Source: Flavobacteriaceae bacterium | GTDB taxonomy: Bacteria; Bacteroidota; Bacteroidia; Flavobacteriales; Flavobacteriaceae | DNA: 32,000 bases | NCBI GenBank assembly: GCA_965224465.1 | Contig: OZ245049.1 | Location: forward strand, 2,280,001 to 2,312,000 | Direction of reading: 5' to 3' | Shown: one piece after another, positions 7,844 to 30,818 of the stretch | Position numbering within the stretch: the stretch's first letter is position 1 | Layout of the letters: the number at the start of each line of letters is the position of its first letter | The notes under the pieces: generated by a model | What the model was told of the DNA's origin: nothing | Seen by the model: only the letters and a program-made list of their open reading frames with translations | Databases searched by the model: none | Program-made: the position numbers and the translations under genes

Positions 7844-9550
7844 ATGGAACTTCTTCATTATTTATTAAAATCAGGGCTTGTACTGGGGCTGTTCCTAACC
7901 ATATATGGTCTCTTCCTAAAAAAAGAGACGCATTTTCAATGGCATCGAATCTTTTTAAACACTGGTATAATCTTATCATTTGGGCTACCTCTGCTAATAC
8001 TCACACAAGTAATTTACATTTCTATTCCAGTAAGAGAACAGGTTATTCCACTTGTAAATCAAGCATTAACTACTCATACCAATACTATAAACTGGTCCTT
8101 TTATATAGGAATACTCTATTTTTTAGGCGTGGTAATAATGACGCTTCGCTTTTTACACCAATGCAATAGCCTCTACAAAATAATTAGCAAGAGTTCGGTG
8201 AGTAAATTAGAAAACCAACAATACCTAGATACATCCATTAAATGCACCCCGTTTTCTTTTTTCAACTATATCATCATCAATAAAAAACTACATACTGCCG
8301 AGGAAATAAGGATGATACTCACCCATGAAAACGTTCATAGCTCACAATACCATAGCTTAGACATTCTTTTATCTAACCTATTATTAATTATACAATGGTG
8401 GAATCCAATGGCTTGGTTTTATAAAAAATATATGGAAGAAAACATAGAATATATTGCTGACACAGAAACCATCAAAGAAATCTCTTGTCCCAAAGCATAC
8501 CAATATGCTTTAGTAAAAAACATAGTCTCAAACATCCAACCAGCTTTAGCAACTCATTTTTACCAATCACTTATAAAAAAAAGAATCATTATGTTAAACA
8601 AACCCACATCTAACAACATCAGTCGTTGGAAAACCATCCTCGTTTTACCTTTAATTGCTTTATTTTTCTGGACTTTTAATATGGAAGCACAATTTAAATT
8701 TGAGCAAATAGATAAAGAAGCAACACATTATATTGTGAGTCCAAAAACGCCAAAAATGGAATGGAATTCTATGGAGAAATATGCTAACTCAAACCCCTTT
8801 AAACTTACGGATACCCAACAAAATTCAAAGGAGGAAGCTACTCTTAAAACAATAACCAATTCTAACGATTCGAACACAGAAAAGCCAGCTTTAAAAACCC
8901 AAGGCAAAGAGCTACCCGTTACACCTGTTTTTACGAAATATAGTGCTGTAATTCAAACACAAGACAGTCTTATAAAAATTAAAATCCCCAAAGTATTGTA
9001 TGTCCTTAACGGAAAAAAAGTGTCTTCAAAAATTATCGAAGCCATCGATCCTGACAAAATTAAAAGTATAAATATCCTAAAAAGAAGTAACGCAACCGAG
9101 AAATATGGAATTAAAGCAACAAACGGAGCAATAGAAATATACACAAAATCCACAAATATAATAACAGCAACACGTAAAAACACCAAGCCTTCCTTTACCC
9201 TAAGCAACATAGAAACACCAAAGAAAGGTAACTCAAAAACCCCCTTATACATCTTAGAAGGAAAAGAAATTACCGCAGCTCAATTAAAAGACATAAAACC
9301 AGAGCAAATAAAGGCTATAAACGTTCTTAAAAACAAACAAGCTATTGCAAAATATGGACGTAAAGGAACAAACGGAGTCCTAGAAATAACACTAAAACCT
9401 AGCGCTACCAACACCCCCAAAAACACACGTAACATTACAGACGAAAAAGAAACAAACACAGATGAATTAGCTAAAGACAGCATAAAAATAATTCGCATTA
9501 TAAAAGGGAACCCAACAGTAAAAATCAACGATAAAAGAGGAGAAGAATAA
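7844..9550 (+). CDS. BlaR1-like M56-family membrane metallopeptidase, with two C-terminal TonB-receptor-plug-like repeats instead of a penicillin-binding sensor
   Basis: N-terminal transmembrane segments and the zinc motif HENVH with a downstream E (EENIEY). The C-terminus carries two paralogous modules: YVLNGKKV..IKSINILKRSNATEKYGIKATNGAIEIYTK and YILEGKEI..IKAINVLKNKQAIAKYGRKGTNGVLEITLK. Confidence 0.85.
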   Translation: MELLHYLLKSGLVLGLFLTIYGLFLKKETHFQWHRIFLNTGIILSFGLPLLILTQVIYISIPVREQVIPLVNQALTTHTNTINWSFYIGILYFLGVVIMTLRFLHQCNSLYKIISKSSVSKLENQQYLDTSIKCTPFSFFNYIIINKKLHTAEEIRMILTHENVHSSQYHSLDILLSNLLLIIQWWNPMAWFYKKYMEENIEYIADTETIKEISCPKAYQYALVKNIVSNIQPALATHFYQSLIKKRIIMLNKPTSNNISRWKTILVLPLIALFFWTFNMEAQFKFEQIDKEATHYIVSPKTPKMEWNSMEKYANSNPFKLTDTQQNSKEEATLKTITNSNDSNTEKPALKTQGKELPVTPVFTKYSAVIQTQDSLIKIKIPKVLYVLNGKKVSSKIIEAIDPDKIKSINILKRSNATEKYGIKATNGAIEIYTKSTNIITATRKNTKPSFTLSNIETPKKGNSKTPLYILEGKEITAAQLKDIKPEQIKAINVLKNKQAIAKYGRKGTNGVLEITLKPSATNTPKNTRNITDEKETNTDELAKDSIKIIRIIKGNPTVKINDKRGEE

Positions 9551-9639: not shown

Positions 9640-9698
9640 ATGCCAATTATTACCAACTTAAAATTAAGACTGCCTTCATAGATTTATTATTATTTACA

Positions 9699-9870
9699 TT
9701 TTCGACATTCGTGAAATAGTTAAAAAAGAAAACGACGAACTGAATTAACAGTCGCCGTTTCAACTATTTTAGCTCACCCTCTTTTCTATTTTCCTTTTCG
9801 GTGTTCGTGAAACATTTAAAAAAGAAAACGACGAACTGAATTAACAGTCGCCGTTTTAAATGTTTTCACA
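9699..9870. repeat. Tandem duplication (period 96 bp) of a long-hairpin module. The cas9-proximal copy is the tracrRNA 3' end.
   Basis: The core AAAAAAGAAAACGACGAACTGAATTAACAGTCGCCGTTT is identical at 9722-9760 and 9818-9856. The flanking arms differ (GTGAAATAGTT/AACTATTT versus GTGAAACATTT/AAATGTTT) but stay complementary within each copy. Confidence 0.85.
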
Positions 9871-9910
9871 ACGGAATAATCCTTATTGTGAATTGATTTC
9901 AAAATTGTAC
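9818..9910 (-). ncRNA. Predicted tracrRNA, transcribed divergently from cas9
   Basis: Minus strand 9909->9886 is UACAAUUUUGAAAUCAAUUCACAA, a perfect complement of repeat positions 2-25 in the GUUGUG sense, with a G.U opposite position 1. It is followed by UAAGGAUUAUUCCGUUGUGAAAAC (nexus-like), the hairpin CGGCGACUG-UUAAUU-CAGUUCGUCG, and the tract UUUUCUUUUUU. The exact 5' and 3' ends are estimates. Confidence 0.7.
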
Positions 9911-9911
9911 T

Positions 9912-9919
9912 CAAATATA
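9912..9919 (-). promoter_or_regulatory. Candidate -7 box (TATATTTG) for the tracrRNA
   Basis: A perfect TAnnTTTG on the minus strand directly upstream of the anti-repeat. I saw no clear -33 TTG. It predicts a TSS at roughly 9903-9908. Confidence 0.4.
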
Positions 9920-9954: not shown

Positions 9955-9962
9955 TATTTTTG
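9955..9962 (+). promoter_or_regulatory. Candidate -7 box (TATTTTTG) for cas9
   Basis: A perfect TAnnTTTG 34 nt upstream of the cas9 ATG. I saw no clear -33 element. Confidence 0.4.
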
Positions 9963-9995: not shown

Positions 9996-12900
9996 ATGAA
10001 AACAATATTAGGACTTGATTTGGGAACAAACTCTATTGGATGGGCCAATATAAAACTGGATTTCGATAAAAAACAAGGTAAAATCGTCGATGTTGGAAGC
10101 AGGATCATACCAATGTCAAAAGACATTATGGATAAGTTTGGAACAGGACAGTCTATTTCTCAAACAGCAAAAAGAACAGGCTATAGAGGAGTACGCAGAC
10201 TCTACCAAAAAGACAACTTAAGAAGAGAACGTCTACACCGCGTATTAAATATTCTTAATTTTTTACCAAAACATTATGCAGCAGCCATTGATTTTGAACA
10301 AAAACTAGGGCAATTCAAAAAAGGAAAAGAAGTAAAACTTAACTACCTTCCAATAGAAAACGGAAAAGATCAATTCATTTTTATGGATTCTTTTTTAGAA
10401 ATGGTCGCAGAGTTTAAAATAGCACAACCACAATTATTCTATCAAAAAGAAAATGGAGAAGAAACAAAAATCCCCTACGACTGGACACTCTATTATTTAA
10501 GAAAAAAAGCATTAACACAAAAGATAAATAGAGAAGAATTATCTTGGTTATTATTAAATTTCAATCAAAAACGTGGATATTATCAGCTTAGAGGAGAAGA
10601 AAATGAAAACGAAACAAAACTGGAAGAATTTCATTCTCTTAAAGTACTACAAGTTGAGGCTACAGAAGATAAAAATTCAAGAGGGATATGGTATAATGTT
10701 TTTTTAGAAAATGATTTAATCTACAAAAGACAGAGCAAAGACCCTTTAGACAACTGGATAGGAAAACAGAAAGAATTTATAATAAGCATAAACTTAGAAA
10801 AAGACGGAACACCTAAAAAGGACAAAGAAGGAAATATAAAACGGAGTTTTAGAGCTGTTGATTCGACCAAAGATTGGATTGCAATTAAGAAAAAAACAGA
10901 GCAAGACATAGAACAATCAAACAAAAAAGTTGGAACTTTTATTTACGACACACTACTTCAAAACCCTTCTCAAAAAATAAACGGAAAATTAGTTAAAACT
11001 ATTGAGCGAAAACTCTACAAAGAGGAATTACAATTAATTTTAAAAACACAAATAGAAAAACACACGTCTTTAAAAGACAGAGCGTTGTACCAATTATGCA
11101 TTGAAGAATTATACCCTAGAAACGAAGCACATCAAAACATTACTAAAGAAAGAAGTTTCCGTTATCTATTTATGGATGATATTCTATTTCATCAAAGACC
11201 TCTAAAGAGTAAGAAATCCACTATTTCCAATTGTGCGTATGAAAATAGAACCTTTTATTTAAAGAACAAAGAGAGTGAAAAATATGAAAAAATTACAGAA
11301 AGTTTAAAGGTAATATCTAAATCAAACCCGCTATTTAATGAATTTAGATTGTGGCAATTTTTAAAAAACTTAAAAATATATCAACTGAAAAATGAAGAAG
11401 ATATTGATATCACAGCACAGTGTATTGCATCCGAAGAGGGTTGGTGTTCATTATTCGACTTTTTAAACAACCGAAAAGAGGTAGAACAAAAACATATTAT
11501 AGATTTTTTACTAAAAACAGGGAAGTTAAACAAAACAGAAAAAACAAATTATCGCTGGAATTATCCCGAAGACAAAAAATACCCCATTAATGAAACACGT
11601 GTACAGTTCTTAAAGCGTTTAGAAAAAGTAACAGCTATAGACCCCCTATTATTTCTAACAAAAGAAAAGGAATATGCCTTATGGCACATTATTTATTCTG
11701 TAAAAGATAAAAACGAATATGAAAAAGCCTTAGGTACTTTCGCAAGGAAAAATAATCTTGACAAAGTTTCTTTTGTGAATGCATTCCTTAAACACCCACC
11801 TTATAGTTCAGACTATGGTTCGTATTCGGAAAAAGCGATTAAAAAACTACTGCCTTTAATGCGCCTGGGGAAATACTGGGACGAAAAGAACATAAACTTA
11901 GTAGTAAAAAATAGGTTAATTGCAATATTTGAAAGAATAGAACATATTAAAATAGACAAAAAAACATCGGCACAAGCGCTAGAGCTCACCTTAAAACAAG
12001 CTATTAAAGCAGTAGCAGATGACGATATTCCACCAGCATTAATTAAAAGTTTCTTAAATACAGATAAAAGTAAAGCCCTAAAAGGCTTAAACACCTACCA
12101 AGCCTGCTACGCTGTGTATGAAAGACACGCCGAAGTTAGTGAAATTATCCAATGGAAAACACCTAATTCCATTGACCAATACCTCAACAATTTTAAACAA
12201 CACAGTCTAAGAAATCCAATTGTAGAACAGGTTGTAACAGAAACCCTACGTACGGTGCGTGACATTTGGCAACAAGCATTAGATAATGATCCTACTTTTA
12301 AATTTGACGAAATTCATGTAGAATTAGGACGGGACATGAAAAACTCAGCTGAAAAACGAAAAAACATTAGTGAACGACAAACCATTAATGAAAACACAAA
12401 CGCACGCATTAAACTATTATTGGAAGAATTAAAAAATGATTATTCCGAAATAGACATACGCCCTTATTCCCCTAGTCATCAAGAAATCCTCAAATTATAT
12501 GAAGAAGGAGTAGGACAAAACCCTCATGTATCTTATGCTAAATTAGGAGAAGATGAAATTATAAAAATAAGAAGAAATGCAAAACCAACCAGTAATGAAA
12601 TCAAGAAATATAAACTTTGGTTGGAGCAAAATTACATCTCTCCATATACAGGAAACCCAATACCTTTAAGTAAACTTTTTACACAAGCGTACGAAATTGA
12701 ACATGTTATACCAAAATCAAGATTTTTTGATGATTCTTTAAATAATAAAGTAATCTGTGAAAGTGCTATAAACCCAAACCCATACAAAGACAACCAAACG
12801 GCTTATGAATTTATAAAAAACATGGGAGGAATGATTGTCCCAGAATTATCTTCCTCTCATAAAAATATAAAATTATTTACACTAGAACAGTATGAGAACC

Positions 12901-14725
12901 ACTGTAATAAATATTTTAAAAACAACCGAACAAAACTTAAAAATTTACTAAGTGAAGAAGTTCCTGAAGGTTTTATTCAACGCCAAATGAATGACAGTCG
13001 CTATATTAGTAAATTAATTAAAGGGCTGCTAAGTAATATTGTACGTGAAGCAGGAGAAAAAGAAGTAACCTCTAAAAATTTAATCCCCGTTAATGGAGCT
13101 ATTACCTCTAAACTAAAACAAGACTGGGGACTTAACAAACAGTGGAACGATATTATTAGACCACGTTTTGAACGAATGAATGAAATTTCTAATTCACAAG
13201 AATATGGATATATAGATTCCGTAAAAGACACAGAAGGCAAACCAAGTGGAGAAACTTTTTTCCGTTTAATTAGCCCTAAAGGAATCAATAAAAAACGAAT
13301 TGACCATAGACACCATGCACTTGACGCTATTATAATAGCATGTTGCACTAGAGAACATACAAATTACATTACTTCTTTAGATACAGCACGAAAAAACCAT
13401 AAATTAGTAGACAAACTACGATACAGAGAAAAAAGAGAAAAAAAGAACAAAAATGGAGAGTTAACACGTTTTTCAGTTGCTAAAGATTACATAAAACCTT
13501 GGGTAAACTTCCCTATAGAAGTTAAGAACGTCCTAGAAAAAATAATTGTAAGTTTTAAACAAAATACACGGATTATAAACAAAACCAACAATAAAACATG
13601 GCAATGGACTGTAAATGATGAAGGAACATTAAAGAAGAAACAAGTAAAACAAACAAAAGGAGACAACTGGGCCATACGAAAACCACTACACAAAGAAACC
13701 GTGTATGGTAGCGTACGTATAAAACAAGAAAAAAAAGGGCTCGTAAGCTTAAATTCATACCTAGATAAACCTGCACTTATAATAGACAAAAAAATACGTA
13801 AAAAAGTAACGGCTCTTAACAGCCTTTTCGACAACAACAAAAAGAAAATAGCAGACTACTTAAAAAAGAATCCTCTAGAAATTGACAAACAAAAAATTGA
13901 TAAAATAAAAGTTTGGGAATGGACTAAAAACGCAACGGCAACACGCACTCTCCTAAGTGATAAATTTACACGTAAACAATTAGATGCTATTACAGATAGC
14001 GGTATTAAAAAGATTCTAGAACACCACCTTCAAAATTATCTAGATGAAAACAATAAGGAACGTTTTGATCTAGCCTTTAACCACGAAGGGTTGGACATGA
14101 TGAATAAAAATATCACCCAATTAAACAATGGAAAAAACCATAAACCTATTAAATCTATACGTCTTTATGAAGAAGGAAATAGATTTGCAATTTCGCAGAA
14201 TGCAAACAACTTAAATAAGACTAAAAAATATGTAGAGGCTGCAAAAGGAACTAATCTATTTTTTGCAATTTATTGGAATGCCGAAAAACAAGAACGTGTG
14301 TATGAAACAATTCCACTACATGAAGTAATTGAATGGCAAAAACAACGTGCAGCTACAAAAGAATATCAACTCCCAATAATCCCTATTAAGCACAGAAAAG
14401 GAGAATTTCTCTTTTACCTTTCCCCTAATGATTTAGTATATGTACCTACTCCAGAAGAAATGAACAACCCAACACTTGTTGACTTTAAAAACCTATCAAA
14501 AGAACAAGTAATGCGGATATATAAAATGGTGAGTAGTACAGGAAATGAATGCCACTTTATCAATAATAGAGTTTCATCTTTAATTAAAAAGTATGATGCG
14601 AAATCAAAAATAGGTGAGTACGGTAGTTTAAATAAATCAGAAAAAACAATAAATGCAATACTAATTAAAAAAACATGTTGGAAATTACAAATAAACAGAA
14701 TCGGTAACATAAAAAACGTAATCAC

Positions 14726-14750
<25 letters not shown>
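9996..14750 (+). CDS. cas9: Cas9 endonuclease, type II-C, unusually large (1584 aa)
   Basis: RuvC-I ILGLDLGTNSIGWA (D8). Arg-rich bridge helix RTGYRGVRRLYQKDNLRRERLHRVL. RuvC-II IHVELGRD (E776 by my codon count). HNH YEIEHVIPKS..DDSLNNKV (H903). RuvC-III HRHHALDA (H1107/D1110). About 470 aa lie C-terminal to RuvC-III. cas1, cas2 and a CRISPR array follow. Confidence 0.97.
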
Positions 14751-15959
<1,209 letters not shown>

Positions 15960-16028
15960 GACTAAAAAAATAAGTATTGTAAAATAGTGTTCTTCTTAAA
16001 CCTTACTGTTTTACAAATCCTAAAAATA

Positions 16029-16065
16029 AATCCCAAAGCCTTAGTATGACTAAGAATTTGGGATT
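16029..16065. terminator. Long hairpin between cas2 and the first repeat
   Basis: AATCCCAAA (16029-16037) pairs with TTTGGGATT (16057-16065), and an inner stem pairs CTTAG (16040-16044) with CTAAG (16050-16054). It could terminate the cas operon (+) and/or array transcription (-). Confidence 0.5.
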
Positions 16066-16068
16066 GAC

Positions 16069-19000
16069 CCTGTGATTGCTCACGTAAAAATACAATTTTG
16101 AAATCAATTCACAACTGTCCTCTCGATGATGCAGATGCATTATGTCCTGTGATTGCTCACGTAAAAATACAATTTTGAAATCAATTCACAACACGATGCA
16201 ATTAATTTGTCGTATGCTAGACCCTGTGATTGCTCACGTAAAAATACAATTTTGAAATCAATTCACAACAAATTGGACTGGTGATTTTGACGTTAAAACC
16301 CTGTGATTGCTCACGTAAAAATACAATTTTGAAATCAATTCACAACTAATCTCCTTGATAGTTTAACACTTCGTTTCCTGTGATTGCTCACGTAAAAATA
16401 CAATTTTGAAATCAATTCACAACGCCATTTTATCTAATTCTTAAAATTTTAAACCTGTGATTGCTCACGTAAAAATACAATTTTGAAATCAATTCACAAC
16501 TGTATTTAGAAACACGCCCATAGCAATCAACCTGTGATTGCTCACGTAAAAATACAATTTTGAAATCAATTCACAACTGAGGCTGATAGCCTTCTGTTCT
16601 TCAATTACCTGTGATTGCTCACGTAAAAATACAATTTTGAAATCAATTCACAACAATTGCTTGTAGTTAGCATCTACTCCTCCTCCTGTGATTGCTCACG
16701 TAAAAATACAATTTTGAAATCAATTCACAACATTCTACTAACCAGTTCATCATATAATCCCCCTGTGATTGCTCACGTAAAAATACAATTTTGAAATCAA
16801 TTCACAACAGTATCTAACAATAGTATTTTACCTCTAACCCTGTGATTGCTCACGTAAAAATACAATTTTGAAATCAATTCACAACGATTACATGTGTTAT
16901 GAAAAATAGTACATGCCTGTGATTGCTCACGTAAAAATACAATTTTGAAATCAATTCACAACTTAAAATATCATTATTCAATGTTGATATTTCCTGTGAT
17001 TGCTCACGTAAAAATACAATTTTGAAATCAATTCACAACTAAACTTCAGTGAATACTTCGCAGGTAAGGAACCTGTGATTGCTCACGTAAAAATACAATT
17101 TTGAAATCAATTCACAACAATAGATACTGTTTGTCAATTAAATATTATCCTGTGATTGCTCACGTAAAAATACAATTTTGAAATCAATTCACAACCAATA
17201 TGTCAGTATCAATATGTCAGTATCACCTGTGATTGCTCACGTAAAAATACAATTTTGAAATCAATTCACAACTAAAAGCCATAACTATTACATTTCAATA
17301 TCCCTGTGATTGCTCACGTAAAAATACAATTTTGAAATCAATTCACAACTGTTGTAATAACGAATAAGTAGTTGTATATCCTGTGATTGCTCACGTAAAA
17401 ATACAATTTTGAAATCAATTCACAACTATAAGTCGCCCTGATAGTTCTAAGATATGCCTGTGATTGCTCACGTAAAAATACAATTTTGAAATCAATTCAC
17501 AACAAGATCAGCGATCGCTTTTTCATGAGTCTCCCTGTGATTGCTCACGTAAAAATACAATTTTGAAATCAATTCACAACCATTTCAATTACTTCAAAAA
17601 CTATTTTTCCTGTGATTGCTCACGTAAAAATACAATTTTGAAATCAATTCACAACTTGGTGCGGCTGACGTGATTCAATAGCATCGCCTGTGATTGCTCA
17701 CGTAAAAATACAATTTTGAAATCAATTCACAACGACACAATGCATCTTTTGGTAACCTGTGATTGCTCACGTAAAAATACAATTTTGAAATCAATTCACA
17801 ACTAACGGCTTAAATGAATTTCTGTAAATCGCCTGTGATTGCTCACGTAAAAATACAATTTTGAAATCAATTCACAACGAAGGCTAATACATTTATTGAC
17901 AAGTAATTACCTGTGATTGCTCACGTAAAAATACAATTTTGAAATCAATTCACAACAAGTTTGTAGTTCCATATATTGAAGCATCTCCTGTGATTGCTCA
18001 CGTAAAAATACAATTTTGAAATCAATTCACAACTGAGGCTTACTAACCAGTTCTGAACTTCTATTTCCTGTGATTGCTCACGTAAAAATACAATTTTGAA
18101 ATCAATTCACAACAGTATCTCTTACTAAGAGTATTTTACCTTTTAACCCTGTGATTGCTCACGTAAAAATACAATTTTGAAATCAATTCACAACTATCCA
18201 TTGCGAAAATATCGTACATCATAACCCTGTGATTGCTCACGTAAAAATACAATTTTGAAATCAATTCACAACTTGATTTCGCTATTGGGTTTCTATCGGG
18301 ATCCTGTGATTGCTCACGTAAAAATACAATTTTGAAATCAATTCACAACTAAATTGTGAGAACTAATAAGTGTTGTACATCCTGTGATTGCTCACGTAAA
18401 AATACAATTTTGAAATCAATTCACAACCTATTTCTTTTATTAAACATTTGGAAATTTCCTGTGATTGCTCACGTAAAAATACAATTTTGAAATCAATTCA
18501 CAACTTACCCTCGTCAACTTCTGGATTTACAGCCTGTGATTGCTCACGTAAAAATACAATTTTGAAATCAATTCACAACATTCTGCGATGGTCTGTTTAA
18601 GAGCTATGTCCTGTGATTGCTCACGTAAAAATACAATTTTGAAATCAATTCACAACAACTAACAATCGAATCCTTAAGCGTTCCTACCTGTGATTGCTCA
18701 CGTAAAAATACAATTTTGAAATCAATTCACAACTTATAGCTTCACTTGCCTTTGATTTTTTAACCTGTGATTGCTCACGTAAAAATACAATTTTGAAATC
18801 AATTCACAACAGAGTATAAATCGGTCATTAAAAGACATATCCTGTGATTGCTCACGTAAAAATACAATTTTGAAATCAATTCACAACATGATACCAATTA
18901 TCAAATACAACTTGATGCCTGTGATTGCTCACGTAAAAATACAATTTTGAAATCAATTCACAACGCTTAGCAGGTTTCGTTCTATTGAGTAAGACCTGTG

Positions 19001-19118
19001 ATTGCTCACGTAAAAATACAATTTTGAAATCAATTCACAACAACAAACATTTGCACTTACTCCTTTAGTCCCCTGTGATTGCTCACGTAAAAATACAATT
19101 TTGAAATCAATTCACAAC
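16069..19118 (-). CRISPR. CRISPR array: 40 x 47-nt repeats, 39 spacers (22-34 nt, mode 30)
   Basis: The + strand repeat is CCTGTGATTGCTCACGTAAAAATACAATTTTGAAATCAATTCACAAC. In the inferred crRNA sense (minus) it is GTTGTGAATTGATTTCAAAATTGTATTTTTACGTGAGCAATCACAGG. I noticed no repeat variant on reading, and repeat plus spacer lengths sum exactly to 3050 bp. The strand call rests on the GTTGT 5' end and on the tracrRNA anti-repeat strand; that orientation has about 0.7 confidence. Confidence 0.97.
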
Positions 19119-19260
19119 GCGTATCTGTACCAGTAATCGACCGTATTATTTTGAAAAGAAATGATAGTTAAAAAAAGAATTAAAAGATATAGGGGGAATT
19201 AAAAAAAATAGCATTTAAAAATACCCAAAGAGTTACTTTTACTGCTTTTTATAAAAAAGA

Positions 19261-19290
19261 AAATCCTTCAAGCAAAAGCTTAAAGGATTT
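19261..19290 (-). terminator. Hairpin downstream of tRNA-Gln
   Basis: AAATCCTT (19261-19268) pairs with AAGGATTT (19283-19290), with an inner AAGC/GCTT stem. On the minus strand it is followed by CTTTTTTATAAAAA. Confidence 0.5.
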
Positions 19291-19302
19291 CTAAAAATAC
19301 CG

Positions 19303-19373
19303 TTGTCCCACAAGGACTCGAACCTTGAATGACGATACCAAAAACCGGAGTGTTACCATTACACCATGGGACA
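19303..19373 (-). tRNA. tRNA-Gln (anticodon UUG)
   Basis: The reverse complement folds as a cloverleaf. Acceptor stem TGTCCCA/TGGGACA. D arm GTGT-AATGGTA-ACAC. Anticodon arm CCGGT-TTTTGGT-ATCGT, with one C.U and one G.U pair. T arm CAAGG-TTCGAGT-CCTTG. Discriminator A. CCA is not encoded. Confidence 0.82.
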
Positions 19374-19391: not shown

Positions 19392-19399
19392 CAAAATTA
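19392..19399 (-). promoter_or_regulatory. Candidate -7 box (TAATTTTG) for tRNA-Gln
   Basis: A perfect TAnnTTTG on the minus strand, 18 nt upstream of the mature tRNA 5' end. Confidence 0.4.
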
Positions 19400-19550
19400 A
19401 GGGTTTATTTCGTACCCACAAACATTTTTTTAACTTTTTTTTCAAAAATATTTTTTTAACAACTTTTTATGAGAAAATCGCAGTAGTAACTGACTGATTA
19501 CCGCATGATATGTAGTATTTTTAGTAAATTCGCCTCGATAAAAAAAATTT

Positions 19551-22500
19551 ATGAACTTTACAGATTTTAAAAAATGGAACACCATTTTTGGCTGGATAGC
19601 CTTTGGTATTGCACTTGTAACATACACCCTCACACTAGAACCAACAGTAAGTTACTGGGATTGCGGCGAGTATATTTCCACGGCAGTTAAATTAGAGGTA
19701 GGACATCCACCAGGAGCTCCGTTATTCCAAATGATAGGCGCTTTTTTCGCCATGTTCACTACAGACGCCTCTCAAGTAGCTCAAATGGTGAATTTTATGT
19801 CTGGTTTAGCCAGTGCTTTTACCATTCTTTTTATGTTTTGGACCATTACATATCTGGGACAAAAACTACTTTCTAAAGACAACAAAAACAATATTGCGCT
19901 CTTCGGAAGTGCTTTTGTAGGGTCTTTGGCCTACACTTTTTCGGATAGTTTTTGGTTTAGCGCCGTAGAAGGAGAAGTATATGCTATGTCGTCCTTTTTA
20001 ATGGCATTATTATTTTGGCTTGGATTGCGATGGGAATCGGACATGGACAAACCACAAGGAAACAAATGGCTTGTTTTAATTAGTTTTATTGTTGGGCTAT
20101 CCTTTGGGGTCCATATTTTATCTTTATTAGTCATTCCTTCTATCGTATTTATTTATATTTTCAAAAAATACGACATCAACAATATTCAAAAATTTGTTAT
20201 TGCCAACATTATTTCTGTTTTAGTCTTAATGTTTGTATTTAAATTTTTATTTCCATTTACCTTAAAATATTTCAGTGCATTTGAACTGTTTTTCGTCAAC
20301 AAAATTGGACTTCCATTTAACAGCGGAAGTATTATAGCTGCCTTTTTAATTATCGCAGTATTTTATGCCGCACTTAAATACACGCGTAGTAAAAAAATGT
20401 TTGCTGCCAACACACTTGTTCTTGTACTTGTATTTACCATGATTGGTTTTTCTTCTTGGTTAATGCTTCCTATTAGAGCAAATGCAAACACAACTATTAA
20501 CGAAAACAACCCCTCAAGCGCCCGTGAGCTATTAGCGTATTACAACAGGGAGCAATATGGAGATTCTAACGTGTTCTACGATAATTATTACTCGTTCTCT
20601 TACGACAGAGAGTACGATGCCTCCAACCCTACAAGAGACGAGAAACCTAAATACGAGAAAGACGAAAAAACGGGAACGTATGTAATTGTCAACCACTATA
20701 AAGATGCTTTACCCAATTGGAGTGACTCACATAAAGGATTTATCCCACGTATGGTTGCCTACAACAGCCCTTCTGTGATTGCGAACTACAAATCCATTGT
20801 TGGCATCCCTCAAAAAAGTCATCGAAGACCTACGTTTGCAGAGAACATCCATTTTATGATAGAATACCAATTCGGCTATATGTACGGTCGATATTTTATG
20901 TGGAATTTTGTAGGAAGACAGAACGATGTACAAGGACAATTAAACCTTGAGGATGGGAATTGGTTAAGTGGTATTGATTTTATAGACAGTTTCTTTTTAG
21001 GCACTCAAAAAAACCTACCCGATGATGTTAAAAATAACAAAGGAAGAAACACTTATTATTTCTTTCCATTTATTCTTGGATTTATAGGATTATTTTATCA
21101 ACTGAAGCGCAATAAAAAAGATTTCTACACCCTCCTACTCTTTTTTGCTTTTACAGGGCTTGCCATTATATTTTACACCAATCCAAAACCTTTTGAACCT
21201 AGAGAACGAGATTACGCTGTAGTTGGCTCTTTTTATATTTTTGCCATTTGGATTGGATTTGGAGTCCTTGCTATATTTGAAAAACTATCTAAATACGCAC
21301 AAAAAAACCAAGTAGCCATCGCAGTTTCACTACTTGCACTACTTGCAGTACCCACTTTAATGGCATTCCAAAACTGGGATGATCATGACAGGTCTAATCG
21401 ATACACCTCTCGATTAAACGCCAAAGCTTATATTGATTCTTGTGCCGAAAACGCCATTATGTTTACCATTGGAGATAATGATACCTTTCCACTGTGGTAC
21501 ATGCAAGAAGTAGAAAATTACCGAACAGATATCAAACTGATCAACTCAAGTTTATTTGCGACCGATTGGAATATTGATCAAATGAAACGCGCCACATACA
21601 AAGCGCCTCCGATCCCTTCACAATTGACACACGACGATTATAAACTAGGAAGTTTAGACATTGCCTATCACGTACCTTTTCCTCAATTTAAAGATACGAT
21701 TATAGATATTAAATACTTGATGAGATGGTTGCAAAGTAAGAACGAGAATACGTTTATTGATTTAGACGAAGACGGACGTCCCGAAAAAGTATATCCGACC
21801 AACCGTATCAGAATTCCTGTAAACAAGGAGGCCGTTCTTAAAAACGGTATTGTAGCTCAAAAAGATGCTGATTTAATCCTACCGTATATCGATATTACGA
21901 TTGACGCACAAGGATTGCAAAAAAACAGAATTTTAATGCTTGATATTTTAGCCAATAACGACTGGAAGCAACCTATTTATTTTACAGGAGGCGCACAAGC
22001 TGCAGAAGAATTTATTTGGTTAAAAGACTATTTACAACTAGATGGAATGGCTTATAAACTAGTCCCTATAAAAACCGTAAATAAGAGTAATTTCTTTGAA
22101 ATGGGACGTATGGATTCTGAATTGATGTACAAAAAAGTAAAACAATGGGAATGGGGAACTATTAACAGTGATGCTATATACTTAGACCCAGAATCTCGTA
22201 AAAATTCTGTTACCTATCGCAACAATATGGAGCGTTTAGCTACTACTTTAATCAAAGAAGGAGATTCGATTCGCGCAGAGGAAATCATAGATTTAGCCAT
22301 GGATAAGATGCCGACCAAAAAATTTGGTCATTACAGTATGTTATTGCCATTTATAGATTTATATTACAAGATAGATAGGCCTGAAAAAGCACGTCGATTA
22401 AGTGAAGAATTGGCAGAGATATTCAAGCAAAAACTTGTGTATTACAGTCAGTATAACGAAGCGGATCTTGAAGCAGTTTACGATCCCATTGAAGGTAGTT

Positions 22501-22622
22501 TTAACATGTACAATCAACTGGTACGTATTTCTGTAAAAAACGACACAAAAGAATATGCTGACACTCTAAAAAACAATTTAGTGTCTTATATGCAATTGTT
22601 CCCTTATTTATTCGAGGAATAA
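19551..22622 (+). CDS. DUF2723/TMEM260-like polytopic membrane protein (putative GT-C-type glycosyltransferase)
   Basis: 1023-aa ORF. The N-terminal YWDCGEYISTAVKLEVGHPPGAPLF motif and about 10 transmembrane segments are followed by a large soluble, TPR-like C-terminal part. The family assignment is from memory of the motif. Confidence 0.8.
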   Translation: MNFTDFKKWNTIFGWIAFGIALVTYTLTLEPTVSYWDCGEYISTAVKLEVGHPPGAPLFQMIGAFFAMFTTDASQVAQMVNFMSGLASAFTILFMFWTITYLGQKLLSKDNKNNIALFGSAFVGSLAYTFSDSFWFSAVEGEVYAMSSFLMALLFWLGLRWESDMDKPQGNKWLVLISFIVGLSFGVHILSLLVIPSIVFIYIFKKYDINNIQKFVIANIISVLVLMFVFKFLFPFTLKYFSAFELFFVNKIGLPFNSGSIIAAFLIIAVFYAALKYTRSKKMFAANTLVLVLVFTMIGFSSWLMLPIRANANTTINENNPSSARELLAYYNREQYGDSNVFYDNYYSFSYDREYDASNPTRDEKPKYEKDEKTGTYVIVNHYKDALPNWSDSHKGFIPRMVAYNSPSVIANYKSIVGIPQKSHRRPTFAENIHFMIEYQFGYMYGRYFMWNFVGRQNDVQGQLNLEDGNWLSGIDFIDSFFLGTQKNLPDDVKNNKGRNTYYFFPFILGFIGLFYQLKRNKKDFYTLLLFFAFTGLAIIFYTNPKPFEPRERDYAVVGSFYIFAIWIGFGVLAIFEKLSKYAQKNQVAIAVSLLALLAVPTLMAFQNWDDHDRSNRYTSRLNAKAYIDSCAENAIMFTIGDNDTFPLWYMQEVENYRTDIKLINSSLFATDWNIDQMKRATYKAPPIPSQLTHDDYKLGSLDIAYHVPFPQFKDTIIDIKYLMRWLQSKNENTFIDLDEDGRPEKVYPTNRIRIPVNKEAVLKNGIVAQKDADLILPYIDITIDAQGLQKNRILMLDILANNDWKQPIYFTGGAQAAEEFIWLKDYLQLDGMAYKLVPIKTVNKSNFFEMGRMDSELMYKKVKQWEWGTINSDAIYLDPESRKNSVTYRNNMERLATTLIKEGDSIRAEEIIDLAMDKMPTKKFGHYSMLLPFIDLYYKIDRPEKARRLSEELAEIFKQKLVYYSQYNEADLEAVYDPIEGSFNMYNQLVRISVKNDTKEYADTLKNNLVSYMQLFPYLFEE

Positions 22623-23575: not shown

Positions 23576-23667
23576 ATCTTTTTTTTTATCTTTTAGAAAA
23601 ACATTTTTAACAACAAATATACATTTATTATACTAATCTTAAACCACATAACTACTAGATAGCGAGT

Positions 23668-24000
23668 AATACCAATTACAATCCAAAATAACAGATATAA
23701 ATAGTTTATTTTACGTGCTAGCGTTGTTGAAAAATAGAACGATAGCTACGGCTATCCTTAGATTTTTCGCCTAACTTTAATACCAATTAAATTCCAAAAT
23801 GACAGATATAAATAGTTTATTTTACGTGCTAGCGTTGTTGAAAAATAGAACGATAGCTACGGCTATCCTTAGATTTTTCGCCTAACTTTAATACCAATTA
23901 AATTCCAAAATGACAGATATAAATAGTTTATTTTACGTGCTAGCGTTGTTGAAAAATAGAACGATAGCTACGGCTATCCTTAGATTTTTCGCCTAACTAG
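23668..24000 (+). repeat. 3 x 111-bp tandem repeat (A half of the MITE-like element)
   Basis: Units start at 23668, 23779 and 23890. Copies 2 and 3 are near-identical. Each begins with the TIR-like AATACCAATTAAATTCCAAAATGACAG and contains the hairpin GATAGC-TACG-GCTATC. Confidence 0.92.
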
Positions 24001-24002
24001 AC

Positions 24003-24257
24003 CAAAAAATAATTCTATTTCTAAACCGTCCCTTGGAAATGTAATTGGTATAACAAAAAATAATTCTATTTCTAAACCGTCCCTTGGAAATGTAATTGGT
24101 ATAACAAAAAATAATTCTATTTCTAAACCGTCTCTTGGAAATTTAATTGGTATAACAAAAAATAATTCTATTTCTAAACTGTCTCTTGGAAATTTAGTTG
24201 GTATAGCAAAAAATAATTCCTTTCTAAACCGTCTCTTGGAAATGTATACGGTATAAC
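24003..24257 (+). repeat. 5 x 51-bp tandem repeat (B half of the MITE-like element, inverted)
   Basis: Units are phased at 24003, 24054, 24105, 24156 and 24207. Each ends in ..CCGTC(C/T)CTTGGAAATGTAATTGGTATAAC, the reverse complement of the 5' TIR seen at 7088. Divergence increases toward the right. Confidence 0.92.
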
Positions 24258-24313
24258 ATCATTTATAAAAAAATAAACCACCGCCACTTCAAACTGCCTA
24301 CGTCTACTGCAAA

Positions 24314-25552
24314 CTACTTCCTCCGCAATGTAATCACAGATATCTCAGGCCAAATCCCAACTCTACCTGGAAAAGCTAAAAACCCAAAACCTCTATTCAC
24401 ATTGATATATCTTCCTGCAACTTGATAGATTCCCGCCCATCGTTTGTACACGTATTGCACAGGGCTCCATTTAAAACCAGGAATTTCTATCCCAAATTGC
24501 ATCCCATGGGTGTGGCCACTTAAGGTCAAATGAAAGTTGGATGGATGTGATTTTATTTCTTGTTCCCAATGCGATGGATCGTGACTCAATACTATTTTAA
24601 AAGCATCGTTGGCTACTAATTTTGAAGCTTTTGACAAGTCCCCAGCTTTTTTAAATCTAAGTCCCCAATTCTCAAGCCCTATTAATTCTATTTTTTCTCC
24701 ATCTTTTTCTATAGATACGTGTTGGTTTAACAATAAATTGAATCCAATTTGGGGATGTACGCTTTTTATTTTTTGGAAATTAGCCTCTTTATCAGCTGTA
24801 GAATTCCACTTTACATATTCACCATAATCATGATTTCCCAAAATAGAGAATTTTCCATACGGTGCTTTCAAGCTTTTAAAATCATCAATCCAAGGATCCA
24901 TTTCTTCTGCTACATTATTTACCAAATCTCCTGTAAAGCAAATGATATCTGATTCTTGTTCGTTAATCAATGTCATACCATGCGCAATTTTATCGGCATT
25001 GTCAAAACTACCACTGTGTACATCCGAAATATGTGTGATTGTAAAACCATCAAAAGCGACTGGTAAATCGTCAAAAAACAACTCGTGTTTTACAATTTGA
25101 TAGTTGTATTTCCCTTTGGTCATTCCGTACAAAATGGCAGCAAAAGGGATGCTTGCCAAGCCCAAGGCTATCTTGCTTGTAAAGGCACGTCTACTAGGCA
25201 TAAACGACGCTTGTTTTTCGCTAAAAAAATAATAAAACACTCCCATTCCTACCCTAGTTATATCTTCTAAAAAAAGGGTTGCAGAAATTAACAGTTTAGG
25301 CACAATACTAATAACAATCAATCCAATAGCATAGGTAAAATACAAGGAAGATTTCACATTAGAGCTATCGTAGCTATACCCTCGAAACACAAAAAAGTAA
25401 ATCACTGCAACATTTACCAACCAGTACATTTTCCAGATATTGGAGTTTCTAAACAGTGTCTTTACACTTTGAAACGCATACAAATCAATACAAATCAGCA
25501 CAATAATAAACAAAAACCACTTCATATACTCCTTTATTAAATTTAGTTCCAA
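24314..25552 (-). CDS. Membrane-anchored metallophosphoesterase (calcineurin-like, YaeI-type)
   Basis: An N-terminal multi-TM region is followed by the motifs ISDVHSG, TGDLVN, GNHDY and SGHTHG. The start could instead be the second ATG (MKWFLF..), 27 nt downstream. Confidence 0.85.
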   Translation of the reverse strand: MELNLIKEYMKWFLFIIVLICIDLYAFQSVKTLFRNSNIWKMYWLVNVAVIYFFVFRGYSYDSSNVKSSLYFTYAIGLIVISIVPKLLISATLFLEDITRVGMGVFYYFFSEKQASFMPSRRAFTSKIALGLASIPFAAILYGMTKGKYNYQIVKHELFFDDLPVAFDGFTITHISDVHSGSFDNADKIAHGMTLINEQESDIICFTGDLVNNVAEEMDPWIDDFKSLKAPYGKFSILGNHDYGEYVKWNSTADKEANFQKIKSVHPQIGFNLLLNQHVSIEKDGEKIELIGLENWGLRFKKAGDLSKASKLVANDAFKIVLSHDPSHWEQEIKSHPSNFHLTLSGHTHGMQFGIEIPGFKWSPVQYVYKRWAGIYQVAGRYINVNRGFGFLAFPGRVGIWPEISVITLRRK

Positions 25553-28610: not shown

Positions 28611-30818
28611 ATGGCAACAATAAACTTTTACTTAGACAAACCTGATAAAAAAGGATTTGCACCAATTCATTTGAGAATAAACTGTAATGGAAGTCAAATA
28701 AAACTATCTACAGGACAGAAAATACAACCAAAAAAGTTTGACAAAAAAAACCAACAAGCAATAGGGTTAAGTAATGAATCTAACGAAATAAATCACTATT
28801 TAAATTTTTTGACAGAAAGAGCAGACGAACTTTTACACCATTCTAATAAAAAGATATTTATTCAAGATGAAGTTAAAACGATTTTAAATGAGCATATCAA
28901 TAACTACAAAGAGAACAACAATGTAACTATTGTTAGAGAACAAATTCCTCTCTACGGTAAGCCGTTCACTTTTGTAGATTTATTTGCGGGTGCAGGTGGA
29001 TTTAGTGAAGGATTTTTACAAGCAGAATCTAATAATAAATTTTTCGATTTTATCGTAGCAAATGACATCAACGAAAACTGTGAATTAACTCACGTAGTCC
29101 GTTATAATCATCAACTAGGATTAGATGCTGAATTTTTAAGACAAGACATCACTGAACCCGATTTTTTAGACAATCTCTTAACCAAAATTAAAGGAAAAAA
29201 AATAGATGTAGTTTGTGGAGGACCACCATGTCAAAGCTTTAGTCTAGCGGGAAAAAGAAGGAAATTTGACAAAAAAGACGATTTATTCACTCACTATCTA
29301 GAAGTAATTAAGGTATTACAACCAAAATACTTTGTAATGGAAAATGTGAAGGGAATTCTAACTAAAGAAGGCGGAAAAATAAAGGAATTAATCATTAAAG
29401 AAATCAATTCTATTGTTGACATTAAAGAGATCCCATTACTAAATTCATTCATAAAAAAAGTAAGAAAAGAATCAAATGCTTTTCTTTTTGATAGTCTTAT
29501 AAAAAGAGTAGAACTTGAAAAATTACTTGAGAAAGACAAAGAATCTGGAAGAGCAGATTTTATTCAATTTGTGGAAAATAGATTCAAAAAGTTAATCCCT
29601 AAAATAGCAGATTACAAGACCAGTAAAACAGACGAAAACATCCATACAATTCGACATGGATTTAATCTATTAGCACGCGCAAAGGAATGGAACAAACTAA
29701 AAAGGGATATAATAAAAGAGAAAGATTTTTGTAATATTGATAGTGATAATTTTGTTAACACATTTACAGTTTTTCTTACAGAAATAGGTTCTGAAAATAT
29801 TATTTCAAAAATTGAAACCGCTTTCAAATCTTTAAAAGTTCCTACAAACTACAAAAAAGATTGTGCAGACATTATAATTGCTCTAAAAATATACACAACC
29901 TCTTTTGATGAATCAATAGAAATCTTAAAAACTCATTGTAACGTATCACAAAAAAAGGAATTGGGTACAATTCTTGAAAGCATTAGACTCTATAAAATAG
30001 AAAAACCTTTTGTTGCTAACGCATCAAATTATGGAGTTCCTCAAAATAGAGAAAGAGTTCTTTTTATTGGCTGTCGTAAAGACCAAAAATACATTTCTGA
30101 AATACCAGCAACAGTATCAGAAAAAGAGAAAGTAACTATTTTTGAAGCACTTTATGACCTAGATTTTATTGGAAACAATCAAGAAGCACATCATTATGAA
30201 TTGATTGATATTTCAACACAATATAACGGAAAATCGAAAAAAATGACTAAGCTTCTTAAAAAAAGAAATATAGACGGAAAACCGAATATTAAATCCGGAA
30301 AAACTTTTGCTGAATGGTCAAAAAAAGGAAGGTTAATTGATCGTTTCAAGCCACAAACAAAGCCTTTCTATGTTAAAAACACCCAAGGACTAGAGAATGG
30401 AGAAAAATATTTTGATTCTCTTAACAATCACAAAACAAGCAATCAAAATGAAACAGTAATTGAGCGCCTTAAAGTTATTTTAAAAAATGGCACTTATAAA
30501 AAAGCACAAACTCAGTTAGAAAAACTTAATCTTTCTTCAAAAAAGAGAAATTATAATGTTTTAAAACCAGATCAACAAAGTTCTACAATAATGACTATTC
30601 CAGATGATTATGTTCATTATAATTCTCCTCGTGCATTAACGGTTAGAGAAATGGCACGCCTACAATCATTTGATGATTCCTTTGTTTTTCAAGGAAAACG
30701 TTCAACTGGAGGAAACAATAGAAAAACTGAAGTGCCACAATACACACTTGTTGGAAATGCAGTTCCTCCATTGTTAGCAAGAGCAGTTGCAAATGAAATT
30801 TTAAAACACATCAAGTGA
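28611..30818 (+). CDS. DNA (cytosine-5)-methyltransferase fused to an N-terminal integrase-type Arm DNA-binding domain
   Basis: C5-MTase motifs: I FVDLFAGAGGFSEGF (aa 121-135), IV GGPPCQSFS (C207), VI ENVKG (244-248), VIII QNRERV (478-483), X GNAVPPLLA. Residues 1 to about 100 (MATINFYLDKPDKKGFAPIHLRINCNGSQIKLSTGQKI..) resemble the N-terminus of Bacteroidota tyrosine integrases. No other ATG lies upstream of motif I. Confidence 0.88.
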   Translation: MATINFYLDKPDKKGFAPIHLRINCNGSQIKLSTGQKIQPKKFDKKNQQAIGLSNESNEINHYLNFLTERADELLHHSNKKIFIQDEVKTILNEHINNYKENNNVTIVREQIPLYGKPFTFVDLFAGAGGFSEGFLQAESNNKFFDFIVANDINENCELTHVVRYNHQLGLDAEFLRQDITEPDFLDNLLTKIKGKKIDVVCGGPPCQSFSLAGKRRKFDKKDDLFTHYLEVIKVLQPKYFVMENVKGILTKEGGKIKELIIKEINSIVDIKEIPLLNSFIKKVRKESNAFLFDSLIKRVELEKLLEKDKESGRADFIQFVENRFKKLIPKIADYKTSKTDENIHTIRHGFNLLARAKEWNKLKRDIIKEKDFCNIDSDNFVNTFTVFLTEIGSENIISKIETAFKSLKVPTNYKKDCADIIIALKIYTTSFDESIEILKTHCNVSQKKELGTILESIRLYKIEKPFVANASNYGVPQNRERVLFIGCRKDQKYISEIPATVSEKEKVTIFEALYDLDFIGNNQEAHHYELIDISTQYNGKSKKMTKLLKKRNIDGKPNIKSGKTFAEWSKKGRLIDRFKPQTKPFYVKNTQGLENGEKYFDSLNNHKTSNQNETVIERLKVILKNGTYKKAQTQLEKLNLSSKKRNYNVLKPDQQSSTIMTIPDDYVHYNSPRALTVREMARLQSFDDSFVFQGKRSTGGNNRKTEVPQYTLVGNAVPPLLARAVANEILKHIK

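Follow-up and report, generated by a model that had tools for sequence, protein, structure and literature searches.

Promoters of crRNAs that lie inside the CRISPR repeats are said to have been found in Campylobacter jejuni by Dugar and co-workers in 2013. The Neisseria paper published by Zhang and colleagues in 2013 reportedly places the promoter box at the 3' end of the repeat, with transcription starting inside the spacer. Repeat-embedded promoters of the type II-C system of N. meningitidis are ascribed to Zhang et al. (2013) in the two papers through which we cite that work (PMC8092290, PMC5006608). The idea is not new for Flavobacterium: repeat-encoded promoters were proposed for the II-C arrays of Flavobacterium columnare and F. 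psychrophilum (Hoikkala et al., 2021, PMC8092290; PMC10309648) on the basis of eight RNA-seq reads or of analogy, and these proposals point to a TTG alone, '33' or '35 bp upstream of each spacer'. Related loci were described as a Bacteroidetes II-C subcluster with repeats of up to 48 nt (Chylinski et al., 2013, PMC3737331) and as 'branch4' of the tracrRNAs, that of Bacteroides (Faure et al., 2018, PMC6546382); both papers leave the repeat length unexplained and make no mention of promoters. A study of Riemerella stated that its 47-nt repeats carry no promoter, treated the region between cas2 and the array as its upstream leader and ran the BDGP promoter predictor on that region (PMC5006608).

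The window analysed here, a 32,000-nt stretch of contig OZ245049.1, holds a type II-C CRISPR-Cas locus of a Flavobacteriaceae-like bacterium, with cas9, cas1 and cas2, neither csn2 nor cas4, and a tracrRNA with an anti-repeat (Table 1). The array directly follows cas2, with no further cas-sized reading frame between them in the ORF list, and is read opposite to cas9-cas1-cas2. Of its neighbours, the ORF at 7844..9550 matches SusC/RagA and the one at 19551..22622 has no match; an Rfam search of the window returned a tRNA alone. The 47-nt repeat is present in 40 identical copies with 39 spacers, 28 of which are 30 nt long, in units of about 77 nt. It reads CCTGTGATTGCTCACGTAAAAATACAATTTTGAAATCAATTCACAAC on the plus strand and GTTGTGAATTGATTTCAAAATTGTATTTTTACGTGAGCAATCACAGG (beginning GTTGTGAATTG) on the minus strand, which is the crRNA sense. 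The locus shares with the subcluster of PMC3737331 and branch4 of PMC6546382 a Cas9 of about 1450-1590 aa, repeats of 46-47 nt beginning with GTTGTGA, a tracrRNA upstream of cas9, and a nexus that follows AA and has GG at the base of its stem.

Table 1. Features of the CRISPR-Cas locus and its flanks (positions within the window)
Feature	Position	Strand	Remarks
Predicted tracrRNA, ~90 nt	9818..9908	-	Anti-repeat, AA-GG nexus hairpin, then terminator hairpin and U-run
Perfect -7 box TATATTTG, putative tracrRNA promoter	9912..9919	-	Predicted start lies 4 nt downstream
Perfect -7 box TATTTTTG upstream of cas9	9955..9962	+	33 nt from its last base to the ATG; points away from the tracrRNA promoter
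cas9 (1584 aa)	9996..14750	+	TIGR01865, E 3.6e-110
cas1 (type II, NMENI class)	14726..15616	+	TIGR03639, E 2e-87
cas2	15618..15959	+	TIGR01573, E 9.4e-19
Hairpin (16065..16029) and U-run, likely intrinsic terminator	16020..16065	-	Directly past the last repeat in the crRNA sense
CRISPR array	16069..19118	-	Sense set by the tracrRNA anti-repeat
Predicted transcription start zone (repeat nt 34-38, TGAGC)	16078..16082	-	In each repeat; position predicted
Candidate -7 box TATTTTTA (repeat nt 24-31)	16085..16092	-	cas2-proximal repeat; in all 40; TAnnTTTG/A kept here family-wide
Candidate -33 element TTG (repeat nt 2-4)	16112..16114	-	cas2-proximal repeat (16069..16115); in all 40
tRNA-Gln (19373..19302), then strong terminator hairpin (19291..19260)	19260..19373	-	Upstream of the array on the crRNA strand; terminator stem 14 bp

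The plus strand holds a copy of repeat nt 1-25 at 9885..9909. This puts the tracrRNA, and hence the crRNA, on the minus strand and settles the crRNA sense in favour of the one taken in an earlier note on this DNA. The tracrRNA anti-repeat pairs with repeat nt 1 to about 24 (about 24 bp). The duplex has an energy of -30.5 kcal/mol, compared to -7.3 kcal/mol for pairing of a repeat-derived 5' tag with the next repeat, which was judged unimportant. Complementarity to the tracrRNA usually stops at repeat nt 18-31 among relatives and at nt 25-28 in the window, and a related Flavobacterium Cas9 cleaves using crRNAs with just 16-25 nt of repeat (PMC12609912). The 3' half of the repeat is predicted not to be needed by the effector. 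As to protospacers and the PAM side, a blastn search with the complete array as query yielded nothing above chance-level matches in 50,697 phage records, and three exact 22-mers of cas2-proximal spacers had no match in IMG/VR.

Every 47-nt repeat probably carries its own Bacteroidota-type -33/-7 promoter, so that each guide RNA would be transcribed separately. The first 24 or so nucleotides of the repeat would form the duplex with the tracrRNA, and nt 24-31 would act as a -7 box of the primary-sigma type (sigma-ABfr) of Bacteroidota, with the consensus TAnnTTTG and the form TATTTTTA here. The invariant TTG at nt 2-4, 19 nt upstream of the box, would stand at the -33 distance. The earlier note had this geometry right, including the 16 nt left after the box. 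RNA polymerase would initiate near repeat nt 34-38, in place of the nt 37-40 suggested earlier, because the Bacteroidota motif is centred at -7 (PMC7366714) and because the distance from box to anti-repeat at tracrRNA genes points to the same zone. Each spacer would then form its own transcription unit behind a repeat-derived 5' tag of about 10-14 nt, and the transcripts would head toward cas2 and end at the hairpin terminator past the last repeat. No leader promoter would be required, since the integration leader is probably downstream of the array. As the earlier note suggested, RNase III may then be unnecessary for making the 5' end. The use of the box in transcription, the start position and the maturation of the 5' and 3' ends are what we infer from this arrangement.

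The proposed mechanism is a phylum-specific version of the Neisseria/Campylobacter design. Both have cas9-cas1-cas2 only, an array opposite to the cas genes and directed toward the end where spacers are added, and one promoter element per repeat with the leader promoter unneeded, a function demonstrated there and predicted from sequence here. Unlike the extended -10 elements of sigma-70 type in those organisms, the element in this locus follows the Bacteroidota -33/-7 grammar, TTG ... TAnnTTTG. Its box is in the middle of the 47-nt repeat, and the predicted start within the repeat, leaving a tag before the spacer, contrasts with Neisseria. F. columnare and F. psychrophilum belong to the same genus-level group and share the direction of transcription and the TTG at the repeat start, but neither of the corresponding papers gives a -7 box, whereas here the comparison of relatives puts the informative element at nt 23-31. 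Our search of the open-access literature found no report of a -7 box in CRISPR repeats.

All 40 repeats, read as crRNA, show a near match in sequence to the primary-sigma promoter consensus, and across the family the consensus is a perfect TAnnTTTG confined to the sense strand. On its minus strand the array contains the composite TTG-N19-TATTTTTA 40 times; its plus strand has none. The earlier score of '7 of 8' for the -7 match had counted two N positions; the true score is 5/6 informative positions, with A in place of the consensus G. When the window repeat is shuffled, a box of 5/6 or better turns up with P=0.55, and TTG-N17-21 followed by such a box with P=0.040 (one strand). Since a 5/6 match is frequent in T-rich sequence, the box of the window is weak by itself. 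The exact composite TTG-N17-21-TAnnTTT[GA] was found 11 times in about 58 kb of strand (the window minus the array), and from this background rate we calculate about 0.008 expected occurrences per 47-mer. Taken alone, the motif in a single window repeat is weak and not strongly beyond chance. A scan for sigma-70-type promoters showed no excess (39 found vs 43 expected), which is the expected outcome for Bacteroidota.

The distance of 19 nt between the TTG and the repeat box falls inside the range of about 17-21 nt for the -33 element. This element is optional in published Bacteroidota promoter data (PMC7366714) and is missing from the window's own tracrRNA and cas9 promoters. The TTG also belongs to the invariant GTTGTG, a stretch paired with the tracrRNA, so its conservation is no argument for a promoter. 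The spacing argument therefore weighs little.

For the comparison, 99 loci that encode Cas9 relatives (46-79% identity) supplied 48 distinct repeats. The repeats were anchored from their ends and scanned for motifs; a MAFFT alignment, in which indels at nt 17-23 smeared the box, was discarded. A perfect TAnnTTTG is present in the crRNA sense in 26 of the 48 repeats, which are related by descent (10 clusters at 80% identity) and do not count as independent events; shuffles would give 2.8, and the antisense strand has none. At the threshold of 5/6, a box is found in 45 of 48 repeats in sense vs 14 of 48 in antisense, with three repeats (L025, L065, and L073) having no such box at all. The weaker plus-strand box mentioned in the earlier note, CAATTTTG, does exist (nt 25-32 of the plus-strand repeat), with the nearest TTG just 14 nt upstream. 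It was dropped as a promoter candidate in view of these antisense counts and is probably noise.

Mean pairwise identity among the 48 repeats is 0.87 over the first 16 nt, 0.83 in the box, 0.40 over the next 10 nt and 0.69 over the last 6 nt, so the conserved box sits between the tracrRNA-pairing half and a variable stretch. In five repeats (L028, L040, L062, L075, and L097), no box at nt 23-26 reaches 5/6. These five have TATATTTG, TATATTTA, GATATTTG or GATCTTTG at nt 32, which is 8 nt downstream of the usual place and 20 nt past a second TTG (nt 9-11). The distance from box to spacer ranges from 5 to 17 nt among relatives. The window variant TATTTTTA (G to A, 5/6) has been retained by a clade of 10 or more distinct repeats, and the same A variant is found at the tracrRNA promoters of relatives (TATCTTTA, TACTTTTA, and TACATTTA). 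The family evidence supports a putative repeat promoter well, and far better than the window alone does.

The same box precedes other transcription units. A perfect box is located on the tracrRNA strand before the anti-repeat in 44 of 65 distinct anti-repeat regions of relatives, with its G mostly at the equivalent of repeat nt 26-31. In the window, perfect boxes precede cas9, tRNA-Gln and the ORFs that start at 28611, 23575, and 4869, and two ORFs, 19551 and 25688, have the TATTTTTA variant ahead of them at a distance of 20-28 nt. A TTG at exactly 19 nt from the box was found at the promoters of tRNA-Gln and ORF 24314..25552. The box is thus predicted to mark promoters in the window.

The hairpin past the last repeat (-17.3 kcal/mol, z -5.1) is present in 12 of 51 distinct flanks; across 6 relatives, 4 of its 9 pairs show compensatory changes and 98% of cells are paired. 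It is likely to stop array transcription ahead of cas2. At the other end, the terminator after tRNA-Gln should block read-through into the array. The distal flanks are unrelated among relatives, even between the window and its counterpart L004 (79% Cas9 identity), and those of relatives contain decayed repeats. The search for a decayed repeat in the window's own distal flank gave nothing significant, so the argument that this is the trailer end rests on the relatives. The tracrRNA orientation and the terminator past the last repeat have the array transcribed toward cas2, which would be the spacer-acquisition end by analogy with R. anatipestifer (47-bp repeats), where new spacers are added at the cas2 end (PMC6008519). 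The 47-nt array of B. fragilis is transcribed opposite to the cas genes in published metatranscriptomes (PMC4911918), and some antisense transcription of it has also been published.

The array could instead yield one long pre-crRNA from an outside promoter, whether one at the cas-distal end or, through read-through, that of tRNA-Gln, with the box retained for a reason at the DNA level, e.g., as an anchor or bend for Cas1-Cas2 integration. CRISPR integrases of other CRISPR types read motifs within repeats, and the box does lie inside the DNA that Cas1-Cas2 must duplicate; there are also TATTTTTA and TATCTTTT octamers in the distal flank (19223..19216). We find this unlikely. A promoter located in distal flanks that are unrelated between close relatives and contain decaying repeats would be unstable, and read-through would have to pass the 14-bp terminator stem. 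Neither the match to a sigma consensus on one strand only (26 vs 0) nor the 8-nt move with the consensus retained is expected of an integration anchor.

Alternatively, the U-rich box may act in RNA, as a nuclease entry or protein-binding site which sets the 5' end of the next crRNA in a long precursor. Type II crRNAs are trimmed at the 5' end by nucleases, and the box follows immediately on the 3' side of the tracrRNA duplex, at the point from which the repeat is discarded. Such a role leaves unexplained both the exact match to TAnnTTTG, including TA, and the same octamer at the tracrRNA, cas9 and tRNA promoters of the same loci, and the 5-17 nt variation in the distance to the spacer suits a promoter better than a fixed processing ruler; we regard it as very unlikely. 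That a T-rich repeat of a 33% G+C genome resembles the consensus by chance, the family pattern being common descent alone, agrees with the shuffles and the shared ancestry of the repeats but is hardly credible, since descent alone would not hold the box at 83% beside a 40% segment, give 26 perfect boxes vs 0 on the opposite strand or re-create the box 8 nt away after the first had decayed.

The central proposal of the earlier note, a promoter inside each repeat in the crRNA sense, is thus favoured by the conservation, strand bias and relocation of the box, its presence at tracrRNA genes, the terminator after the array and the non-conserved upstream flank; the window taken alone supports it far less.

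The promoter had also been offered as the reason for the 11 extra nucleotides of the repeat. This is not supported, as the box stays at nt 23-24 in four relatives whose repeats are truly 36 nt long (period 66), which places the extra bases downstream of the box. We tentatively suggest that the 46-47-nt II-C repeat of Bacteroidota may combine one half for the guide scaffold with another for the promoter, the extra 11 nt or so lying between the -7 box and a terminal integrase motif and shifting the start from the spacer into constant repeat. Each crRNA would then have the same initial transcribed sequence, making output independent of the spacer, and the box would be free to migrate within the 3' half. 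If true, this two-part reading would explain a repeat length unexplained since 2013.

If promoters in the repeats are confirmed, the II-C design of one promoter per repeat would have been rebuilt in the very different promoter grammar of Bacteroidota, which would argue that the design is selected for and is no quirk of Proteobacteria. Published claims of promoterless 47-nt repeats would be corrected, and the crRNA strand, hence the PAM side and the leader assignment, would be fixed for many arrays of gut, oral, fish-pathogenic and marine Bacteroidota. Engineering of Bacteroides and Flavobacterium would gain a simple rule for native guide expression: a single repeat would be a self-contained promoter.

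The window contains a complete type II-C CRISPR-Cas locus. The Cas9 relatives found all belong to Bacteroidota (Flavobacteriaceae, Bacteroidales and others), an ORF neighbouring the locus carries SusC/RagA signatures, and the G+C content is 33.5%. Of the 39 spacers, 28 are 30 nt long; the other 11 differ, giving an overall range of 22-34 nt, which for a type II array is unusually wide. Spacer 15 (17196-17225) is a 14-nt unit repeated 2.1 times. Spacer pairs 9/26, 10/27 and 17/30 resemble diverged versions of one protospacer region each, small indels included (e.g., 16809-16838 vs 18114-18147), which suggests that the same hot spots in related phages were sampled more than once. Two adjacent intergenic tandem-repeat blocks, 23667-23998 (111 nt x 3, 98% matches) and 24003-24258 (51 nt x 5, 93%), have no relation to the CRISPR repeat.

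Features of the CRISPR-Cas locus and its surroundings (window coordinates)
Feature	Position	Strand	Remarks
candidate tracrRNA box	9919..9912	-	TATATTTG, perfect
predicted tracrRNA	about 9908..9818	-	anti-repeat, nexus, terminator
perfect box before cas9	9955..9962	+	
cas9	9996..14750	+	TIGR01865, E 3.6e-110
cas1 (type II class)	14726..15616	+	
cas2	15618..15959	+	
hairpin, then UAUUUUU	16065..16029	- (crRNA sense)	directly after last repeat
CRISPR array	16069..19118		3' of cas2; 40 identical 47-nt repeats, 39 spacers
tRNA-Gln terminator	19291..19260	-	14-bp
tRNA-Gln	19373..19302	-	beyond array
tRNA-Gln promoter	19392-19421	-	textbook TTG-N19-TAATTTTG

A copy of repeat nt 1-25 is located on the plus strand at 9885..9909, 111 nt 5' of cas9, and therefore the tracrRNA is predicted on the minus strand. 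Behind its anti-repeat (24 bp, -30.5 kcal/mol) come first an AA-GG nexus hairpin and then a terminator hairpin with a U-run, in agreement with the Bacteroides tracrRNAs described by Faure et al. (PMC6546382). It follows that the crRNA also corresponds to the minus strand and that the array is transcribed towards cas2, so the anti-repeat confirms the crRNA sense chosen in the earlier note. Read antisense to cas9, the repeat begins with GTTGTG in 57/57 related loci whose repeat consensus is full-length. The predicted tracrRNA 3' tail and terminator occur as a tandem duplication (9691-9770 and 9787-9866), with 80-nt copies that are 88% identical and spaced 96 nt apart. The second of them, which lacks an anti-repeat, could be a back-up terminator or a remnant of a duplicated tracrRNA gene.

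The minus-strand repeat is GTTGTGAATTGATTTCAAAATTGTATTTTTACGTGAGCAATCACAGG. The promoter-like elements proposed for it are exactly where the earlier note placed them: TTG, the candidate -33 element, at nt 2-4, a 19-nt gap, and the -7 box TATTTTTA at nt 24-31, with 16 nt after it. Scanning of the array for TTG-N17-21-TAnnTTT[GA] found 40 matches, every one of them on the minus strand. The match to the TAnnTTTG consensus, put at seven of eight positions, was overstated: only six positions are informative and five of them agree, the single mismatch being the consensus G. A box of this quality (5/6) arises in 55% of shuffled window repeats and the composite of box and TTG in 4%. Judged from the window alone, the case for a repeat promoter is suggestive at best.

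The comparison set of loci encoding Cas9 relatives (46-79% identity) comprised 19 from genomes and 80 from metagenomes, and gave 48 distinct repeats. Perfect TAnnTTTG occurs in 26 of them in the crRNA sense and in none antisense, with 2.8 expected from shuffles; for boxes matching at least 5/6 the numbers are 45 vs 14. TATCTTTG is the most frequent form, while the window's clade has TATTTTTA or TAATTTTA, a variant kept despite diverged sequence 3' of the box. The box starts at nt 23-26 in relatives' repeats, and mean pairwise identity reaches 0.87 in the first 16 nt and 0.83 in the box, drops to 0.40 over the following 10 nt and recovers to 0.69 in the last 6. The plus-strand box, also considered as a promoter, is not conserved among relatives.

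Five repeats (L028, L040, L062, L075, L097) score below 5/6 at nt 23-26; in L040, L062 and L075 this site reads GTTCTTTG or GTTCTTTC. All five have a shifted box at nt 32 (TATATTTG, TATATTTA, GATATTTG or GATCTTTG), 20 nt past a second conserved TTG (nt 9-11). Selection for a promoter would predict such a move of the box on one strand only with its consensus kept, and descent alone would not. Guide function imposes no effector constraint on the 3' half of the repeat, since in relatives tracrRNA complementarity usually extends to repeat nt 18-31 (nt 25-28 in the window) and a related Flavobacterium Cas9 cuts DNA with crRNAs retaining just 16-25 nt of repeat (PMC12609912).

The same box is found at other putative promoters. 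Perfect TAnnTTTG is present on the tracrRNA strand in 44 of 65 distinct anti-repeat regions, its G mostly at repeat-equivalent nt 26-31, with complementarity beginning a few bases further 3'. In the window, perfect boxes also lie 5' of tRNA-Gln and of the ORFs that begin at 28611, 23575 and 4869, and TTG lies exactly 19 nt 5' of the box at the tRNA-Gln and ORF 24314..25552 promoters. The tRNA-Gln promoter and terminator provide a handy internal standard for promoter appearance in this genome. Since TATTTTTA is located 28 nt 5' of ORF 19551 and 20 nt 5' of ORF 25688, the variant ending in A may well function in this organism.

The locus offers no good site for an external crRNA promoter. The upstream flank of the array is unrelated even to that of the closest relative, and in several related loci it contains decayed repeats, which identifies it as the old array end. 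In R. anatipestifer (47-bp repeats) new spacers enter beside cas2 (PMC6008519). Therefore, the integration leader is transcriptionally downstream of the array, the same layout as in Neisseria, and cannot contain the crRNA promoter. The B. fragilis 47-nt array is likewise transcribed opposite its cas genes in metatranscriptomes (PMC4911918). The hairpin behind the last repeat (-17.3 kcal/mol, z -5.1) has both sides changed in 4 of 9 outer pairs among six relatives, with 98% of cells paired, and its U-run is restricted to the crRNA strand; a comparable terminator is present in 12 of 51 distinct flanks.

We propose that RNA polymerase carrying the primary sigma factor of Bacteroidota would bind each repeat and, because the motif is centred at -7 (PMC7366714), start at about nt 34-38. 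Each transcript would then consist of a 10-14-nt tag, a spacer and the next repeat, which would pair with tracrRNA and be bound by Cas9. RNase III cleavage and 5' trimming may come after, though they would not be required for unit definition, and transcription would stop at the terminator ahead of cas2. The tag is predicted to pair weakly with the repeat that follows (-7.3 kcal/mol). The earlier suggestion that the promoter accounts for the 47-nt repeat length is not supported: true 36-nt repeats (period 66) in four relatives (L048, L049, L051, L063) keep the box at nt 23-24, just 5-6 nt from the repeat end. The extra ~11 nt make up the variable region that separates the box from the terminal ACAAC/ACAGG, and would place the start inside the repeat instead of at the repeat-spacer junction. 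The four period-66 arrays are a natural series for asking what these bases do.

Hoikkala et al. (2021, PMC8092290) and a 2023 F. psychrophilum paper (PMC10309648) had already put forward repeat-encoded promoters in Flavobacterium, on the basis of TTG alone and very few reads. A Riemerella study reported no promoter in the 47-nt repeats, treating the cas2-array spacer as an upstream leader and applying the BDGP predictor to it (PMC5006608), and Chylinski et al. (PMC3737331) noted long repeats with no explanation given. We found no published report of the -7 box in these repeats in the open-access literature. Judging by the comparison with relatives, each repeat probably carries a Bacteroidota promoter in the crRNA sense. 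Repeat-embedded promoters are established in N. meningitidis and C. jejuni; those proposed here would be a phylum-adapted form of this known mechanism and not new in kind.
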